DNA of 64,000 nt, taken from contig OZ244885.1 in assembly GCA_965221385.1 (NCBI GenBank), forward strand, positions 2,325,314 through 2,389,313, given 5' to 3'. Shown here one piece after another: positions 10,258 to 42,513 of this stretch. The DNA is from Dehalococcoidia bacterium (lineage in GTDB: Bacteria; Chloroflexota; Dehalococcoidia; Lucifugimonadales; UBA3495). Position numbers and translations under genes: made by a program. The notes beneath the pieces were generated by a model, which saw only the letters and a list, made by a program, of their open reading frames with translations, was not told where the DNA came from and ran no database searches. Positions within the stretch are counted from its first letter, which is position 1. Each line of letters opens with the position of its first letter.

Positions 10258-11309
10258 AGTTTGTACCTTCCTGCCAGTCCCTGGGGACGAAATACCATCA
10301 GCGCCACCAATAACAGGCCCAACACCACCTGCCGGGCCTGCCCCACGTATTCCGAGGGCAGGAAGGGCAGGAAGCGCATCCCCTCTTCCAGCAGCACGAA
10401 GGCCAGCGCGCCCAGCAGGGAACCCCAGATGGTTGCCAGGCCGCCCAGGATGACGATGGACACCAACAGCACCGATTCCAGCAGGATGAAGGAGTTGGGG
10501 TCGATGTAGGCGCTCCAACTGGCGAACATGGCGCCGGCCAGGCCTGCCATCATGGCCGAGATTACCCAAACCGCCAGCTTGTAGTACGTGGCGTTGTACC
10601 CGAAAACCTCCGCCGCCTGTTCGTCCTCCCGGATCGCCGTAAGTATTCGGCCAAAGGAGGAGGTTACGATGAACCAGGATATGCCCACCACCAGGGCCAG
10701 CAGGACCAGGGCCAGCAGCATCAGTTCCAGTTCCGAATCCAATACCCAGCTGCCAATTTGGGGCCGGGCAATGTCGTGGATGCCAAAGGCGCCCCGGGTC
10801 AGTACTCTCAGGTTCAGGAAGACGTTGAAGGCAATGATGGCAAAACCAAAGGAGACCAGCACATAGATGTCGCCCCGAAACCGGTTGAAGGCCAGCCCCA
10901 CCAGCAGGGCCACCACCCCGGCGGCGATGGCAGCCAGGGGCAGCGCGGCGAAGAAGGGCAGTTCAAAGGTGGGTATGGCCCCGGTGCGCAGGTTTTCATA
11001 AGATGTGGTTGACGTGAGAATGGCCACAGTGTATGCCCCCACCCCAAAGAAGCCAATATGTCCGATGGACAGGAGTCCGGTGTAGCCAACCACCAGGTTC
11101 AGGCTGACGGACAGCATGGCCCAGATGGCGAATACGGCGCCCAATGTGACGGCGAAGGTGGTCCCCTTCCAGAGCATGAAAACCACCGCGACCGCAATTA
11201 TGATCAGGTTGGCCCACCAGCCCAGGTTGCCCCGGAACAGGCCGGCGCCTTCGTCGGGGTTGGGCCGGACGATTCCCGTCCGCCGCAACAGTTTCATCGC
11301 TCCGAACAT
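10254..11309 (-). CDS. livM: Branched-chain amino-acid ABC transporter permease
   Basis: 351-aa polytopic ORF with the LivM-type GYTGLLSIGHIGFFGVGAY motif. It sits between livH and livG. Confidence 0.85.
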   Translation of the reverse strand: MFGAMKLLRRTGIVRPNPDEGAGLFRGNLGWWANLIIIAVAVVFMLWKGTTFAVTLGAVFAIWAMLSVSLNLVVGYTGLLSIGHIGFFGVGAYTVAILTSTTSYENLRTGAIPTFELPFFAALPLAAIAAGVVALLVGLAFNRFRGDIYVLVSFGFAIIAFNVFLNLRVLTRGAFGIHDIARPQIGSWVLDSELELMLLALVLLALVVGISWFIVTSSFGRILTAIREDEQAAEVFGYNATYYKLAVWVISAMMAGLAGAMFASWSAYIDPNSFILLESVLLVSIVILGGLATIWGSLLGALAFVLLEEGMRFLPFLPSEYVGQARQVVLGLLLVALMVFRPQGLAGRYKL

Positions 11310-11312
11310 AAT

Positions 11313-12662
11313 CTATTTCCTCGGCAGCAGGCCCCGGGGCCACAGGGACAGGAACAGGATGAGCAGCAGGAAGGCGACCACATCCTTCCACTCGCCGGCC
11401 AGGTCCCAGATGGCAAATTGCTCTATGACGCCCAGGAGGAACCCTCCCACGATGGCGCCGTAGAGGTTGCCAATTCCGCCTACCACCGATGCAATCCAGC
11501 CCTTGAGCAGCAGCAACAGGCCCATGCGGGGTTGAATTGCCGTGTCGTGGCCGCTGAGAATGCCGGCCAGGGCCGCCAGCGACGCCCCCACGAAGAAGAC
11601 AATGGCCACTATGACCGTTGTGTTGATGCCCACCACCCGGGCCACTTCCTCGTCGTCGCCGATGGCCCGCACTGACCGCCCGAAGGCAGTCCATTTCAGT
11701 ACTGCCAGGAGGCCTAGGAAAACGACGATGGCCGCGCCGATGACGAAGAAATTGAACCCCTTGATGTTTGCGCCCCCGATGGTCCAGGGAACGCTGCCGA
11801 AGGGGTCGGGAAGGGGGCGTGGCGCGCTCTGAAACACTATGGAAATCAGGGCCGCGATGGCCAGCAGGATGCCCAGGGATGCCACCAGCATTATCAGCGG
11901 GGAACGGGACCTCTGCCGCAGATTGTAGTAGAGACCCCGGTACAGGGCCAGCCCAACCGAGCTTGCCAACAGGCATGACAGTAGCCAACTGAGGTAGAGC
12001 TTGCTTCCCGGTGAACCTACAGTCACAGCGCCCAGGGCCAGGGCAACCAGGACGCCTGCCAGGAGGGAAGCGGCGGCAATGAGCCGCCCTCGCCGGTCTC
12101 CCGCCGCGTTTGAAAGCAGGAAATTCAGCAGCCAAGCCGTTGCGATTCCGGCCAGGGCCGCTGCCAATGGGCCGAATAGAAGGTGCAATTCTGTTGGGAA
12201 GGTCAGAAGCACTGCCGTGTAGGCGCCGGCGACCAGGGCCAAACAGCCGCCGCCAATCCGCAGCGCCGTGAGGCTGACCCGACCACGCAGCCGGCCATAG
12301 AGGGCGGTGTGGAGCGCCCACGCCACCACGCCGGCCACCACGATGGCAAACACCAAGTTCAATATTGGGGTGTTGACCTGGTATTGGCCGCCCAGCCATT
12401 CCTGGGAGCGGAGGTAGAAGACGCCGTAGGCGCCCAGGCCGGCGGCGGCTCCGTAGTACATGTCCAGGAACCAGACGGTGCTGTAGACGAGGGTAAAACC
12501 GATGGCCATCAGCGCGTAGATGGCTCCTACGGAAAGGCCGTTGAAACCGAACTGTAAAGCCTGTTCCGGAGAGGTCAGCCCGCGCCAACCGATGTAGGCC
12601 AGAACCACAACGATGAGCAAGACGGCCACCAGCTTGTCGGTCCTGGCAAACTCTCTGAGCAA
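11313..12662 (-). CDS. livH: Branched-chain amino-acid ABC transporter permease (long form)
   Basis: 449 aa. LivH-type motifs GLSVGAIYALMAIGFTLVY and GGIGNLYGAIVGG. It is longer than usual because of an internal hydrophobic insertion. Confidence 0.8.
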   Translation of the reverse strand: MLREFARTDKLVAVLLIVVVLAYIGWRGLTSPEQALQFGFNGLSVGAIYALMAIGFTLVYSTVWFLDMYYGAAAGLGAYGVFYLRSQEWLGGQYQVNTPILNLVFAIVVAGVVAWALHTALYGRLRGRVSLTALRIGGGCLALVAGAYTAVLLTFPTELHLLFGPLAAALAGIATAWLLNFLLSNAAGDRRGRLIAAASLLAGVLVALALGAVTVGSPGSKLYLSWLLSCLLASSVGLALYRGLYYNLRQRSRSPLIMLVASLGILLAIAALISIVFQSAPRPLPDPFGSVPWTIGGANIKGFNFFVIGAAIVVFLGLLAVLKWTAFGRSVRAIGDDEEVARVVGINTTVIVAIVFFVGASLAALAGILSGHDTAIQPRMGLLLLLKGWIASVVGGIGNLYGAIVGGFLLGVIEQFAIWDLAGEWKDVVAFLLLILFLSLWPRGLLPRK

Positions 12663-38599: not shown

Positions 38600-39445
38600 C
38601 TACCCGAAGTAATCGGCCAGGGCCACCACCATGCTGCCCATGTGCGGGTGTTCCGGTTCCACGTCCACCGGAATGCCGGCCTCGCGGAGGCGGCGGCTGC
38701 ACACCGGCCCCACCGACGCCACCACTGCGCCGCCGGTTTTGTCCGCACCATTCTCTTCCTGCTTGGGTGCGCCCAAGCCCTCCCGCAGGGCGTCCTCACG
38801 CCCTCCCTTGGCAGCAATGGTAAGCAGGTTTCCCACCTGGGGTTGGCTGGTGAAGGCCACCGCGTCAATCTTCCCGGCAGCCAGGTCGTCGATCATTGCC
38901 AGCGCCGGCCCTTCATCTTCGGGCAAGCCCCAGGTATAGAGGGTGACTTCGCGGACGCGGGCGTCCCGGTTCTCCAGGTGACGCACCAAGGGCTGGTTGG
39001 GGCCGCCGTAGCGTTGAACGGCCATCACCCTGCCGGCCAGGTCCCATCCTGCCAGGGCATTAATTAGGTCGGCGGTGGTATAGGGTTCGGGGGGCATGAG
39101 GTCGATGTGGATCTTGTGCTGGCGCAGCACCCGGGCGGGCTTGGGACTGCGGGCGATGACCGTCATGCGGTTCAGGGCATCGATGAACTCCTGCTCCTTG
39201 CCCATGGCTGCCGCGGCGGAGACCAAGGCCTGGGTTCCCACGCCGGTCAGCAGGGTGATGGCGTCAATGCCACCGGCGCAGGTTTCCAGCACCAACTGCT
39301 GAACCTCCGGGCTGTCCTCCAGGTACACCTCCTGAAGAACCGGCGCCGGATAGGGAACGCCGCCGTGCCGTTCGATCAGACCGGCCATCTCCGTGGTCAT
39401 CCGGGCTTCCACGAAGGCGACGGTCCTGCCGTTCAAAGAAGCCAA
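38600..39445 (-). CDS. hemD: Uroporphyrinogen-III synthase
   Basis: 281 aa. TTG start with GGGAGA upstream. Two-lobed HemD-like layout (GRTVAFVEAR.., ITLLTGVG, DAVAFTS). It lies directly downstream of sulfite reductase, consistent with siroheme supply. Confidence 0.75.
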   Translation of the reverse strand: MASLNGRTVAFVEARMTTEMAGLIERHGGVPYPAPVLQEVYLEDSPEVQQLVLETCAGGIDAITLLTGVGTQALVSAAAAMGKEQEFIDALNRMTVIARSPKPARVLRQHKIHIDLMPPEPYTTADLINALAGWDLAGRVMAVQRYGGPNQPLVRHLENRDARVREVTLYTWGLPEDEGPALAMIDDLAAGKIDAVAFTSQPQVGNLLTIAAKGGREDALREGLGAPKQEENGADKTGGAVVASVGPVCSRRLREAGIPVDVEPEHPHMGSMVVALADYFG

Positions 39446-39589: not shown

Positions 39590-41422
39590 TTAGACGGCGC
39601 ACTCGCCCTCACCCCGTTCCAGGACGTAGTTGGTGGTGCGCTCCCAGTCCACGTACAGCTCGCCGCCCACTTCCCCATTGGTGGCGGATTCCTGGATGGA
39701 TGACGCCACGGCGGTCAATTCCTCCAAACCCACCCGGTCCAGGAACTGGTTGAAGCTCTCGCCGTCTGCCCGATTGTCCTTGTAGTAGGTGGCTATTTCC
39801 CGCACCATGCCGGGAACCAGCTTGGCCGGCACCTTCACCTTGGGGATGCGGGTACCGATGCGGGAGTCTTCCACCCGGTTGTCGCCATAGTTTCCGCCCA
39901 GGAACATCTCGTAGGCGGGAATCTGGCTGCCATCCGGGCCCTTGATGGCCGCGCCGTGGAACCCGATGTTGGCGATGTGGTGCAGGCCGCAGCCGTTGGG
40001 GCAGCCGCTCATCTTGATGCGGATGTCCCGGACGCCCTCGTCCTGCAGCAGACCGTTCCACCCGCCCATTTCGGCGCCGATGGCCTTGGCCAAACCCATG
40101 GAGGAGGTGATTCCCAGCTTGCAACTGTCGGTGCCGGGGCAGGAAACCACGTTGGCGATGGTATGGGCGCCCGGTTCGTTCAGGCCGATGGCGCCCAGTT
40201 CCTCCCACACCTGGTGCAGGTATCCATTGGGAACCCAGCGCAGGGCCAGGTTCTGCTCCTGGGTGGCGTTGGCCCGGCCGCCGGTGTAGCGGCGCAGAAT
40301 CTGGGCCAGGCCCCGGAACTGGTCGGGGGTCAGGTCGCCCCGGACCGGCTTCACGTACACCACGTTGTACCCGGCCTGTTTCTGGGCAACCACGTTGGTT
40401 TCCAGCCAGTAGTTGTACTCGCCGCTGCCATTGCCCGTGTCGCCGGCGCTGGCCGGTGGTTCGGGAGGGTACTCCCTGTAAATGTCTTCGTCGGCGATGT
40501 ATTCCTTGGGGTCTATGGGGCCGATCTCCGCCAGCTCCGCCTCCACCAGACCGCGGAATTCCTCCAGCCCAATCCGGTCGATCAATACTTTCAGGCGGGC
40601 CATCATGCGGTTCTTGCGCAGGGACACCGCCTTATCGAACACCGTCCAGATGGCCAGGGCCAGGCGCAGGTAATCCTCCTCGGGCAGGAACTCGTAGAGG
40701 GGCTTGGCCAAACGGGGCATGATGGAGGTGCCGCCGCCCACGTAAACCTTGAAGCCGCGCTTCTCCACCCCGTCCTCAACCCGTACCTGGGAAATGTAGG
40801 TGAGGTCCTGGATGGCCGCTGCCACGGTATCCCGGGAATCGGTGCCGGTGAAGGCCGACTTGAACTTGCGGGGGAAGGACTGGGTAATGGGGTGGCGCAC
40901 CCCAAAGCGCACGTAGCCGGTCAGGTAGGGCGTCGGGTCGAACACCTCGTCGGCGTCCACGCCGGCCGTGGGGCAGCCCACCACGTTGCGCACGGTATTG
41001 CCGCAGGCTTCCCGGCTGGACAAACCCACCGCGCCCAGCTTGCGCAGCACGTCGGGACATTGAGGCAGGGGGACATGATGGAACTGGACGTTTTCGCGGG
41101 TGGTCAGGTGACCCTTGCCCAGGGGGGCGTAATGCTCGGCGATGTCCCCCAGGACTTCCAGGGAATCGGCGTTGACGATACCGCCGGGCAGCTTGACGCG
41201 AATCATCTGCACGTCGGCCTGGCGTTGGCCGTACACTCCCTGGCGGAGCCGGAAGGGAGTAAACTCGGCGTTATCCTGCTCCCCGGACTGGTAGCGGGCC
41301 GACTCCTCTTCGAAATTCACCACCTCGCTCTCCATGAAGGGTATGACGCCCGGCGCGGTGGCGGCCAGCTCAAGGCTCTCCCGGTAAACTTCCTCCTGAG
41401 TGCGCTGCTGTTTCGTGGCCAA
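39590..41422 (-). CDS. sir: Nitrite/sulfite reductase hemoprotein (ferredoxin-type, assimilatory sulfite reductase likely)
   Basis: 610 aa. TTG start with AGGAGG 5 nt upstream. Siroheme/4Fe-4S cysteine clusters CPGTDSCKLG and SGCPNGCG. Confidence 0.88.
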   Translation of the reverse strand: MATKQQRTQEEVYRESLELAATAPGVIPFMESEVVNFEEESARYQSGEQDNAEFTPFRLRQGVYGQRQADVQMIRVKLPGGIVNADSLEVLGDIAEHYAPLGKGHLTTRENVQFHHVPLPQCPDVLRKLGAVGLSSREACGNTVRNVVGCPTAGVDADEVFDPTPYLTGYVRFGVRHPITQSFPRKFKSAFTGTDSRDTVAAAIQDLTYISQVRVEDGVEKRGFKVYVGGGTSIMPRLAKPLYEFLPEEDYLRLALAIWTVFDKAVSLRKNRMMARLKVLIDRIGLEEFRGLVEAELAEIGPIDPKEYIADEDIYREYPPEPPASAGDTGNGSGEYNYWLETNVVAQKQAGYNVVYVKPVRGDLTPDQFRGLAQILRRYTGGRANATQEQNLALRWVPNGYLHQVWEELGAIGLNEPGAHTIANVVSCPGTDSCKLGITSSMGLAKAIGAEMGGWNGLLQDEGVRDIRIKMSGCPNGCGLHHIANIGFHGAAIKGPDGSQIPAYEMFLGGNYGDNRVEDSRIGTRIPKVKVPAKLVPGMVREIATYYKDNRADGESFNQFLDRVGLEELTAVASSIQESATNGEVGGELYVDWERTTNYVLERGEGECAV

Positions 41423-41519
41423 TTGATCCTCCTGCGAATTCTGTCCGTCTGTGTGCGTTGAAACACGCCCTGGGTTTCCCGTTAATCAGTTGCGGCCCCT
41501 TCCGTCGGGGTAAACAAAT

Positions 41520-41551
41520 CGCCCACCAAGTTGCGAAATGCTTGGTGGGCG
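41520..41551 (-). terminator. Leader (attenuator) terminator upstream of sulfite reductase
   Basis: Minus strand: CGCCCACCAAG-N10-CTTGGTGGGCG, a perfect 11-bp stem, followed by ATTTGTTTA. It lies inside the 5' leader, about 90 nt before the sir start. Confidence 0.55.
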
Positions 41552-41587
41552 CTGGGTTTCCGATTGACGCAATAATATACCCGCTCC

Positions 41588-41638
41588 CTATGTGGGAGGA
41601 CAGGTACAGAGGCAAAGGCAGATATTCCTGACTGTCAT
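41588..41638 (-). CDS. Putative leaderless poly-Cys leader peptide (16 aa)
   Basis: Below the track size cutoff. ATG at 41638 lies 8 nt after the -10 hexamer. Translation is MTVRNICLCLCTCPPT followed by a stop, with 4 Cys in 7 codons. Confidence 0.5.
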   Translation of the reverse strand: MTVRNICLCLCTCPPT

Positions 41639-41646
41639 GGTCAACA

Positions 41647-41675
41647 ATTCTAGCGGCGGCCTACTGCTTTGTCAA
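41647..41675 (-). promoter_or_regulatory. Near-consensus promoter of the sir leader
   Basis: Minus strand: TTGACA (41675-41670), 17 nt, TAGAAT (41652-41647). Confidence 0.55.
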
Positions 41676-41757
41676 TACCATTTGATACTAATGCCGGGTT
41701 AACATTTTCTACAATGATGTTGCAGAACCGACGGGCTTCAGGACGAAGGCCCTGATC

Positions 41758-42513
41758 CTACCCCCGGCTCGGAAAGGGTAAGCCGGACTTGCCCTGGTTC
41801 AACGCTTCGAGACAGGCGGGGCCGCATTTCATTTCCCCCATTTGAAAGCCCATACCTTCCCCGAAACGCATGGTCACCCTTTGCCGAATGGCGTCCATTT
41901 CGGGAATCCTTTCTGCTCTTCCCTCATCGGCCAGCCTGGCCATGGAGGTTACCTCCCGGTCGGTGATGCCACAGGGGACGATCTGGCCAAACTTGGACAG
42001 ATCGGGATTGACGTTCAGGGCGAAGCCGTGGCTGCTTACTCCCCGGCTGATCTTCACGCCGATGGCCGCTATCTTGGCCTCTCCGACCCACACGCCGGTC
42101 AAGCCGGGCAGCGTCCCGGCGGCAATGCCAAAATCGGCCAGGGTTGCAATGATTACCTGCTCCAGGGCGCGGACGTACTTCAACGGGCCCCCCCAGTCCC
42201 GCAAGTTCACGATGGGATAGGCCACCAGTTGGCCCGGGCCGTGATAGGTTATCTGCCCGCCCCGGTCCGTCTCGACCACATCTATACCCTGCAACGACAA
42301 CTCCTCCGGTGGCAGGAGAAAGTGCTCCGGCCTGGAGAGCCGGCCCCGGGTATAGACGGGGGGGTGTTCCAGCAGCAACAGGGTATTGGGAACCTCGCCT
42401 TCCCGAACGGCGTTGACCAGGTCGGCCTGTAGTTGCCAGGCGCGGCGATATGCAACCTGGCCAAGGTATATGGGTTGGCAGAAGGGCGTTTCAGACATGA
42501 AACATCGGGCCAT
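41758..42513 (-). CDS. lipB: Lipoyl(octanoyl) transferase
   Basis: 251 aa. RGGQITYHGPGQLVAYP and KIAAIGVKI motifs. The start is 42513 or 42498. Confidence 0.88.
   Translation of the reverse strand: MARCFMSETPFCQPIYLGQVAYRRAWQLQADLVNAVREGEVPNTLLLLEHPPVYTRGRLSRPEHFLLPPEELSLQGIDVVETDRGGQITYHGPGQLVAYPIVNLRDWGGPLKYVRALEQVIIATLADFGIAAGTLPGLTGVWVGEAKIAAIGVKISRGVSSHGFALNVNPDLSKFGQIVPCGITDREVTSMARLADEGRAERIPEMDAIRQRVTMRFGEGMGFQMGEMKCGPACLEALNQGKSGLPFPSRG

Follow-up and report, generated by a model that had tools for sequence, protein, structure and literature searches.

The classical leader-peptide attenuators, represented by the trp, his, leu, thr, pheA, and ilv leaders of E. coli and Salmonella, carry a short open reading frame (ORF) rich in end-product codons and four RNA regions that form alternative 1:2, 2:3, and 3:4 pairings. 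The position of their stop codon lets a terminating ribosome cover region 2, an intrinsic terminator precedes the first structural gene, and the terminator is more stable than the antiterminator, which makes the choice between the two kinetic. For cysteine, leader peptides that lack terminators have been predicted in Mycobacterium, P. acnes, and B. longum (Seliverstov et al. 2005, PMC1262725), and mycobacterial polycysteine leaderless short ORFs have been found to confer cysteine-responsive control as part of a 'Cys ribulon' (Canestrari et al. 2020, bioRxiv 10.1101/834739). The latter authors stated that attenuation for cysteine mediated by an upstream ORF (uORF) had not been described before (bioRxiv 10.1101/834739). 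A survey from the Breaker laboratory also includes the uORFC-8-2 motif, a predicted terminator-based Cys attenuator located upstream of cysS in Rhodobacterales (PMC8632094). Here we describe an element located upstream of a putative sulfite reductase gene (sir) in a window of 64,000 nucleotides from a Dehalococcoidia bacterium of the phylum Chloroflexota (contig OZ244885.1, positions 2,325,314 to 2,389,313). At the level of sequence and predicted structure, this element has the defining features of the classical attenuators listed above. We consider it very likely to be a ribosome-mediated transcription attenuator keyed to Cys codons, which most likely raises sulfur assimilation when cysteine-charged tRNA runs low.

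Coordinates and the order of elements in the window are given 5′ to 3′ on the minus strand. Relatives were collected by a protein-guided scan using one genome per species, which yielded 70 sir loci, nearly all from metagenome-assembled genomes (MAGs) of Dehalococcoidia/SAR202. The related set used for comparison comprises the 33 Dehalococcoidia/SAR202 loci whose Sir protein is at least 66% identical and for which upstream DNA is present. Alignment A1 contains 34 leaders, and the three helices discussed below were defined on it. A metagenome scan whose search pattern was confined to region 1 and a portion of region 2 produced 62 matches, six of which (L081, L082, L093, L112, L128, and L132) lack promoter, ORF, and terminator context and were set aside as chance. 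Alignment A2 consists of 51 further non-identical metagenome leaders plus the leader of the window; region 3 lies outside the search pattern that produced it. Pairing was scored as the percentage of alignment cells able to pair, relative to controls in which the pairing was slid. The lineage carrying the element is uncultured and in many cases marine, being known from MAGs and environmental contigs.

A first-pass annotation of the window had called a 16-codon leader ORF at 41638-41588 with four Cys codons within seven, and both the position and the count hold. The four Cys residues occur in the order C-L-C-L-C-T-C (Table 1). The homologous ORFs of the related loci are likewise opened by ATG, extend for 16-22 codons, and encode one to six Cys residues, with at least three in 29 of the 33. 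Among the 34 leaders there are 33 distinct peptides, whose mean Cys content is 22%. TGY triplets are found 139 times in frame and 38 times out of frame, and those out of frame are mostly TGT overlapping the start codon in ATGT. Both Cys codons are in use across the family (TGC 49, TGT 90), and length differences in the N-terminal half are indels of 6 nucleotides (nt) that preserve the frame. The last two Cys codons form a nearly invariant TGT-ACC-TGT, and those upstream vary in number, in position, and between TGC and TGT. The retention of Cys while other residues vary, the in-frame excess of TGY, the use of both codons, and the 6-nt indels together indicate selection for cysteine coding in this ORF, which is probably translated. 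Thus, the alignment of sir upstream regions called for by the annotation reveals a conserved frame with conserved Cys codons in an otherwise variable peptide.

The 3′ half of the leader ORF is additionally constrained as RNA. In the marine SAR202-type leaders L023, L025-L028, L030, L031, and L036, as well as in L015, the frame is displaced by an insertion of 1 nt, and the ORF ends 9 nt later at a TAA or TAG inside region 2. The sequence ACAUAGGG is nevertheless kept in these leaders (A1 columns 54 and 61-69), which argues that it is constrained as RNA and not only as a stop codon.

All three proposed helices are supported by compensatory substitutions, the form of evidence that the first-pass annotation had asked for. 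Helix 3:4, the terminator hairpin, has 87% of its A1 cells paired (37-50% in the slid controls), and seven of its 11 pairs change on both sides. For helix 1:2 the corresponding values are 86% and 37-51%, with both sides changing at five of 11 pairs. Helix 2:3, the antiterminator, reaches 86% on A1 (35-62% in the controls), with a change from GC to UA at one pair and from GC to AU at another. On A2, 78% of its cells pair (27-63% in the controls) and the same two positions covary, with GC replaced by UA, UG, or AU in 14 sequences at one and GC replaced by AU in 17 at the other. The pairing of 41588-41579 (GGGAGCGGGT, part of region 2) with 41557-41547 is therefore present as proposed from the window, and it covaries in both alignments. 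The proposed pairing of the codons CCT CCC with GGGAG is also found, but the helix to which it belongs is longer than had been drawn, comprising 13 base pairs (bp; UGUACCUG-(UC)-CUCCC with GGGAG-CGGGUAUA, 41608-41576). The 11-bp hairpin at 41551-41520 with its T-rich tract, which had been taken for a terminator, is likewise present and covarying, and termination at this site is predicted. An inverted-repeat search extends its arms to 19 nt at 84% complementarity. It was not flagged by an automatic terminator scan, whose loop limit of 8 is exceeded by its 10-nt loop, and we do not hold this against the terminator.

Folding predictions recover the same competition between structures. An unguided RNAalifold consensus consists of helices 1:2 and 3:4, and these two helices also make up the minimum free energy (MFE) structure of most full-length leaders when folded individually. 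When region 1 is omitted and region 4 has not yet been made, helix 2:3 forms in 33 of the 34 leaders. Helix 2:3 and the terminator arm share the sequence GCGCCC and are mutually exclusive. The predicted energies of helices 1:2, 2:3, and 3:4 are −16.9, −14.2, and −21.0 kcal/mol in the window, and the family means are −13.6, −15.4, and −19.3 kcal/mol. A long-range closing helix that joins the leader ORF with the sir Shine-Dalgarno (SD) region in the 218-nt MFE fold was rejected, as it is not conserved and both distance and sequence vary. A search of the region 40900-42200 against Rfam 15 at E-values up to 10 gave only two noise matches (E = 2.8 and E = 4), indicating that the element does not belong to any riboswitch or leader family known so far.

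The leader is preceded by a promoter that had been described as near consensus, and this description is borne out. TTGACA-17-TAGAAT at 41675-41647 matches 11 of 12 consensus positions, and in a promoter scan it was the sole sigma-70-like site within 1.2 kb, where 0.5 would be expected by chance. In the 33 related loci the hexamers are essentially invariant and the 17-nt spacer varies freely, which is the signature expected of a genuine promoter. Only 8 nt (TGTTGACC) separate the −10 hexamer from the ATG at 41638, leaving no room for an SD sequence, as had been noted; this gap is 7-9 nt in all 33 relatives. No GGAGG-like sequence is present in this stretch of the window, and no SD sequence was found between the −10 hexamer and the leader ATG of the related loci; a strong one, AGGAGG, lies 5 nt ahead of the TTG start of sir. 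The second A of the −10 hexamer lies 13 nt before the ATG in the window and 12-14 nt before it across the relatives. A range of −14 to −8 for this base has been used to call leaderless genes (PMC3160421). The spacing and the lack of an SD sequence fit a leaderless start, or a leader of at most 3 nt.

Table 1. Features of the candidate Cys attenuator and its surroundings. Positions are those of the window, except in the last row, which refers to metagenome loci.
Feature	Position	Strand	Basis
Conserved block AAAATGTTAACCCGGCATTAGTATCAAA upstream of −35	41681..41708	−	same position kept in closest clade
−35 hexamer TTGACA	41670..41675	−	sequence; invariant in 33/33 related loci
−10 hexamer TAGAAT	41647..41652	−	TAnnnT in 33/33 related loci, always 17 nt after −35
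Leader ORF, MTVRNICLCLCTCPPT + TAG, 16 codons	41588..41638	−	sequence; homologous ORF in 33/33 loci
Cys codons TGC 41620-18, TGC 41614-12, TGT 41608-06, TGT 41602-00	41600..41620	−	sequence
Region 1, 5′ arm of helix 1:2 (UGUACCUG-UC-CUCCC), inside ORF, holds last two Cys codons	41594..41608	−	MFE fold, alignment
Region 2 (GGGAGCGGGUAUA), starts at G of stop codon; partner is region 1 or 3	41576..41588	−	folds, alignment
Region 3 (ACCCAGCGCCC), antiterminator 3′ strand, overlaps terminator 5′ arm	41547..41557	−	alignments A1 and A2
Predicted terminator hairpin 3:4, CGCCCACCAAG (41551-41541), 10-nt loop, CTTGGTGGGCG (41530-41520)	41520..41551	−	fold, repeats, RNAalifold
T-rich tract ATTTGTTTA after hairpin	41511..41519	−	sequence
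Second copy GGAAACCCAGGGC, 13 nt	41467..41479	−	92% identical to 41549-41561 (−)
sir SD sequence AGGAGG	41428..41433	−	GGAGG kept before sir in relatives
sir, siroheme/[4Fe-4S] NirA/Sir-type reductase, 610 aa, TTG start at 41422	39590..41422	−	Pfam NIR_SIR and NIR_SIR_ferr
hemD-like uroporphyrinogen-III synthase	38600..39445	−	HEM4 domain
thiF-type leader	L088:5064-5348; L133:5782-6000	+	metagenome pattern

These features suggest the following mechanism. The strong sigma-70-type promoter would produce an mRNA whose 5′ end lies at or near the AUG of the 16-codon ORF. With no ribosome in the way, helix 1:2 (41608-41576) would form, followed by helix 3:4 (41551-41520) and the U-tract, and transcription would stop about 90 nt before sir. 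If Cys-tRNA(Cys) is plentiful, the ribosome would reach the UAG at 41590-41588 and mask region 2, again permitting the terminator to form. A terminating ribosome covers approximately 12-13 nt downstream of the A site, and since region 2 begins at the stop codon it would fall within this footprint. If Cys-tRNA(Cys) is scarce, the ribosome would instead stall at UGU-ACC-UGU (41608-41600) inside region 1 and leave region 2 free. The freed region 2 could then pair with region 3 (41557-41547) once this has been transcribed, thereby occupying the 5′ arm of the terminator, and polymerase would read into sir and probably also into hemD. The layout, with the last Cys codons in region 1, a stop codon that abuts region 2, and a region 3 that serves as the 5′ arm of the terminator, matches that of a trp-type leader. 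The conserved ORF, the three covarying helices, and this geometry support the annotation's suggestion that the logic of the trp, his, and leu leaders is keyed here to cysteine.

Several observations weigh against this interpretation or limit it. Only the Cys codons at positions 9, 11, and 13 are positioned for a stalled ribosome to open helix 1:2, and a ribosome held for long at the first one (41620) would barely reach this helix and would leave most of it in place. The switch therefore probably depends on the last two or three codons. Moreover, the terminator outcompetes the antiterminator at equilibrium (−21.0 against −14.2 kcal/mol) even when the leader ORF is masked, and read-through must therefore rely on helix 2:3 forming first. 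An antiterminator that acts by forming first is the accepted view for the E. coli trp leader. The U-tract of the window (AUUUGUUUA) is weaker than those found at the same place in relatives, such as TATTTTTTTG or TTTTTTATTT. The substrate of the reductase, sulfite or nitrite, is not settled by its sequence, which falls below every NCBIfam equivalog cut-off, and the support for the interpretation as a whole is computational. Finally, four leaders (L017-L020) keep the RNA switch with only one or two Cys codons. The first-pass annotation had named relatives that conserve the hairpin without the frame or its Cys codons as evidence against the proposal; the frame is kept and most loci encode several Cys residues, and each of the annotation's predictions that comparison can address holds.

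The four leaders just mentioned and two others (L136 and L138) encode M-(R/Q)-(L/F)-EDDLFHLC. They are located at L017:2786-2836, L018:2832-2882, L019:2783-2833, and L020:2804-2854, and approximately 170 nt upstream of sir in L136 and L138. This subclade keeps the terminator, and in L018 helix 2:3 can still be traced by eye. Nucleotide differences among its members are concentrated at third codon positions, which shows that the peptide sequence itself is under selection, and the peptide might act as a nascent chain.

We considered four other explanations for the element. One is that stalling opens a structure that hides the sir SD sequence, so that control is translational and involves no termination. 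This is the arrangement described for Ms5788A, the one mycobacterial polycysteine leaderless short ORF that has been dissected, which acts through SD sequestration (bioRxiv 10.1101/834739). The element resembles this system in having a Cys-rich short ORF, predicted here to be leaderless, before a putative cysteine-pathway gene (bioRxiv 10.1101/834739), and the codons CCU CCC of the window leader resemble an anti-SD sequence. However, the Cys tract pairs with region 2 rather than with the sir SD sequence, and CCUCCC is not kept, being replaced by CCGCCC, CCCCCU, or AUCUGU in relatives. The distance between the hairpin and the SD sequence varies from approximately 15 to approximately 100 nt, and it is the GC-rich hairpin with its T-tract that is conserved and covarying. 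We therefore regard purely translational control as very unlikely. A chance association of a random short ORF with an ordinary terminator has in its favour only that GC-rich genomes hold many spurious ORFs. Its probability is negligible, given that only 2 of the 985 ATG-started ORFs of at most 40 aa in the window have at least four Cys within seven residues, and it is refuted by the conservation in 33/33 loci and by covariation.

The selection for Cys, and the probable translation of the ORF, would also be expected if the ORF encoded a functional micropeptide, such as a metal- or cluster-binding partner of Sir, with the hairpin serving as its leaky terminator. The conservation of FEDDLFHLC at the amino acid level in one subclade would agree with this explanation. 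It is highly improbable nonetheless, since the peptide is so variable apart from its Cys residues, since ACAUAGGG in the 3′ half survives a frame-shifting insertion, and since the covarying alternative helix 2:3 would have no role. Furthermore, unrelated Cys-rich ORFs encoding different peptides recur before sir in other phyla. Conserved unpaired nucleotides (again ACAUAGGG) and two mutually exclusive structures are also what a riboswitch or protein-binding leader would show if it sensed a sulfur metabolite directly and the ORF were incidental, and the gene for an Rrf2-family regulator adjoins the homologous thiF-type leader described below. Yet the element has no Rfam match and consists of three simple helices without a conserved junction or pocket. 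The position of the ATG, the frame, and the Cys codons are conserved although no riboswitch needs them, and the independent, non-homologous leaders share just a Cys-rich ORF and a terminator. Direct sensing thus appears exceedingly improbable, and a Cys-keyed attenuator is the explanation that we prefer.

The attenuator proposed here can be set beside the known systems in more than one respect. Relative to the classical leaders, it would sense cysteine, it occurs in the phylum Chloroflexota, and it has neither sequence homology to them nor an Rfam family. Its ORF lacks an SD sequence and begins 7-9 nt after the −10 hexamer, so that it is predicted to be leaderless or nearly so, and its Cys codons alternate with others rather than being consecutive. 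The mycobacterial short ORFs are similar in that they too are leaderless (a start that is predicted here), Cys-rich, and located at the head of cysteine-related operons, with several operons served by each type (here sir and the thiF-type operon). Sensing occurs through ribosome pausing at Cys codons in the mycobacterial case and is proposed to do so here. The likening of the element to these ORFs in the first-pass annotation is apt in that regard, but it does not extend to the mode of control. In Ms5788A the polycysteine tract pairs with the SD sequence of the next gene and there is no terminator, whereas the leader described here has a covarying intrinsic terminator and antiterminator. The mycobacterial class is defined by at least two consecutive Cys codons; the ORF of the window has none, although CC or CCC is found in some relatives, and there is no homology between the two, which belong to different phyla. 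Because it lacks consecutive Cys codons in the window, SD pairing, and homology, the element is not a strict member of the mycobacterial class.

The uORFC-8-2 motif is similar in that conserved Cys codons are located within a stem that is followed by an intrinsic terminator (PMC8632094). It differs in controlling cysteinyl-tRNA synthetase, in having two tandem Cys codons at positions 14-15, and in occurring in Alphaproteobacteria; it was not reported to be leaderless, and its sequence is unrelated to that of the element described here (PMC8632094). The Actinobacterial candidates, located ahead of cys or cbs operons, are likewise short ORFs in which Cys codons cluster in runs close to the stop (PMC1262725). 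No terminator hairpin is conserved among them, and they were proposed to depend on Rho (PMC1262725), whereas terminator and antiterminator are both conserved here. In the literature searched we found no description of such an element in Chloroflexota, in agreement with a remark in the first-pass annotation, nor of one for sir in Bacteroidota. The switch itself is of a known kind.

The gene downstream of the leader had been read as sulfite reductase with an AGGAGG sequence and a TTG start, followed by hemD, and these sites and the corresponding NIR_SIR and HEM4 domains are all found. The sir product carries two NIR_SIR/NIR_SIR_ferr domain pairs, and its closest solved structure is 1zj8, the NirA protein of M. 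tuberculosis, itself a sulfite reductase. The gene hemD also follows sir in relatives, with a gap of only 13-15 nt in L136-L139. In the window the gap is 144 nt, and hemD is probably co-transcribed and co-regulated with sir. Upstream of the leader, the window carries lipB; relatives have at this place a gene for an MshEN-domain protein, one for a transposase, or, oriented the opposite way, either an OTCase gene or an unnamed ORF. As the upstream gene varies while the leader stays with sir, the leader belongs to sir. We rejected the possibility that the hairpin is the terminator of lipB, because the promoter lies between the two and the upstream gene differs among relatives.

Some additional features of the region were noted. 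Sequences within the block upstream of the −35 hexamer (AATGTTAA...TTAGTATCAA) are kept in L001-L009, L022, L029, and L033 and partly in L010-L016. This block may be a transcription factor or UP-element site that acts besides the attenuator, whose model does not require it. The leader ATG lies at the centre of an inverted repeat, TGAC-N7-GTCA (41629-41643, −), which extends to TTCCTGAC-N7-GTCAGGAA in L022. If the transcript starts at the ATG, this repeat cannot form an RNA hairpin and might therefore be an operator. It occurs in 15 of 34 leaders, where approximately 7 would be expected from shuffles, but almost all of these are close relatives. We adopted neither the hairpin nor the operator, and the repeat is a minor unexplained feature. 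A second copy of GGAAACCCAG(C/G)GC downstream of the terminator, which the first-pass annotation had left unexplained, is real, but it is not conserved. Among the 33 relatives there are only weak echoes, with 2 of 12 mismatches in L007, three in L022 and L036, and 4-6 of 12-13 in the other 30. A function as an alternative region 3 was rejected on these grounds, and the copy is probably a lineage-specific duplication outside the conserved element. Elsewhere in the window, the other short ORF of comparable Cys density is located at 11294-11383 (−) (MWSPSCCSSCSCPCGPGACC...); it is enclosed by overlapping long ORFs of a GC-rich coding stretch and most likely arose by chance. Every Cys-rich short ORF of the window apart from the leader ORF overlaps a long ORF, and these others were dismissed as chance.

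A homologous leader precedes a second operon, which encodes a ThiF-family E1 protein of approximately 280 aa and a pyridoxal phosphate (PLP)-dependent, cysteine-synthase-like enzyme of 316 aa. This thiF-type leader accounts for approximately 20 of the 62 metagenome pattern matches. In addition to the two listed in Table 1, it is found at L074, L076, L077, L079, L086, L087, L090, L091, L094, L105-L107, L114, L117, L118, L121, L124, and L131. Most of these leaders have the promoter TTGACA-17/18-TAGACT, followed after 8-11 nt by ATG. The ORF, of 15-19 codons, has CTCP(P/Q/L)T at its end and encodes two or three Cys in total. The C-T-C is invariant and in most cases there is no further Cys, which supports the importance of the last Cys codons. 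The same regions 2 and 3, the terminator, and the T-tract follow the ORF. A gene for an Rrf2 regulator is located just upstream of these loci and nusA-infB downstream, and the ThiF homologues of these contigs are named SAR202, Dehalococcoidia, or Chloroflexi. No ThiF/PLP-enzyme operon was found in the window or in the sir loci. The presence of the leader before this operon lends support to a role in cysteine metabolism, and the sir and thiF-type leaders together suggest a multi-operon Cys attenuation regulon.

Other Dehalococcoidia, whose Sir proteins are approximately 50% identical, have Cys-rich leader ORFs that are not homologous to the one described above. They are of the MxxxKYCSCCGP, ...CACCGT(T/Y), and ...RRLCCCT types and are found at L049, L052, L053, and L054 (−283 to −235 from sir), at L058 and L067 (−224 to −168), and at L043 and L066. 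These ORFs start 4-10 nt after a TAnnnT box. In most cases a GC-rich hairpin and a T-tract come next, the latter being weak in L049 and L053. On this evidence they look like independent versions of the same device. Similar arrangements occur in Bacteroidota. A Flavobacteriales MAG has two tandem Cys-rich leader units with predicted terminators before sir (L062:2682-2990; MKQTFVYMFMCCNMCCAKSI and MNKRYTKMEMCCALIQLC). In Flexithrix dorotheae DSM 6795, a leader with nine Cys residues (MNCFNNCCCNCCCCCEIQ...) precedes sir (L064:2773-2945), and its antiterminator (GGAAGGCUUC / GAAGCCUUCC) competes with a CCUUC/GAAGG-U8 terminator. A scan of the DNA upstream of sir at 36 distant loci (108 kb in all) placed every Cys-rich short ORF 130-320 nt before sir.

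These observations lead us to a broader proposal, which we offer tentatively and which may well prove wrong in part or in full. The SAR202/Dehalococcoidia might possess a lineage-wide cysteine regulon that operates without a dedicated protein, through leaderless, terminator-based Cys attenuators that serve at least the sir-hemD and thiF-type E1/cysteine-synthase-like operons. The analogues ahead of sir in Bacteroidota and in other Dehalococcoidia would then be of independent origin, and such devices would be widespread and largely unrecognised. Within the family, the M-x-[LF]-EDDLFHLC subclade, with its one or two Cys codons, would possibly have shifted from codon counting to a sequence-specific effect of the nascent peptide.

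The element represents a clear-cut new family that is useful and of evolutionary interest, although the mechanism itself is unsurprising. It would extend cysteine-specific leader-peptide control to a second, distant phylum, and it would join the classical terminator form to leaderless initiation. The device apparently arose more than once, in at least two Dehalococcoidia lineages and in Bacteroidota, which is a hint of convergence. A new RNA family could be seeded directly from the alignments, and since Flexithrix dorotheae DSM 6795 is cultured, the analogous element could be tested in that organism. For the uncultured SAR202/Dehalococcoidia, the leader would provide the first regulatory handle on sulfur assimilation, and metatranscriptomes would reveal cysteine limitation in situ through the ratio of leader to sir reads.

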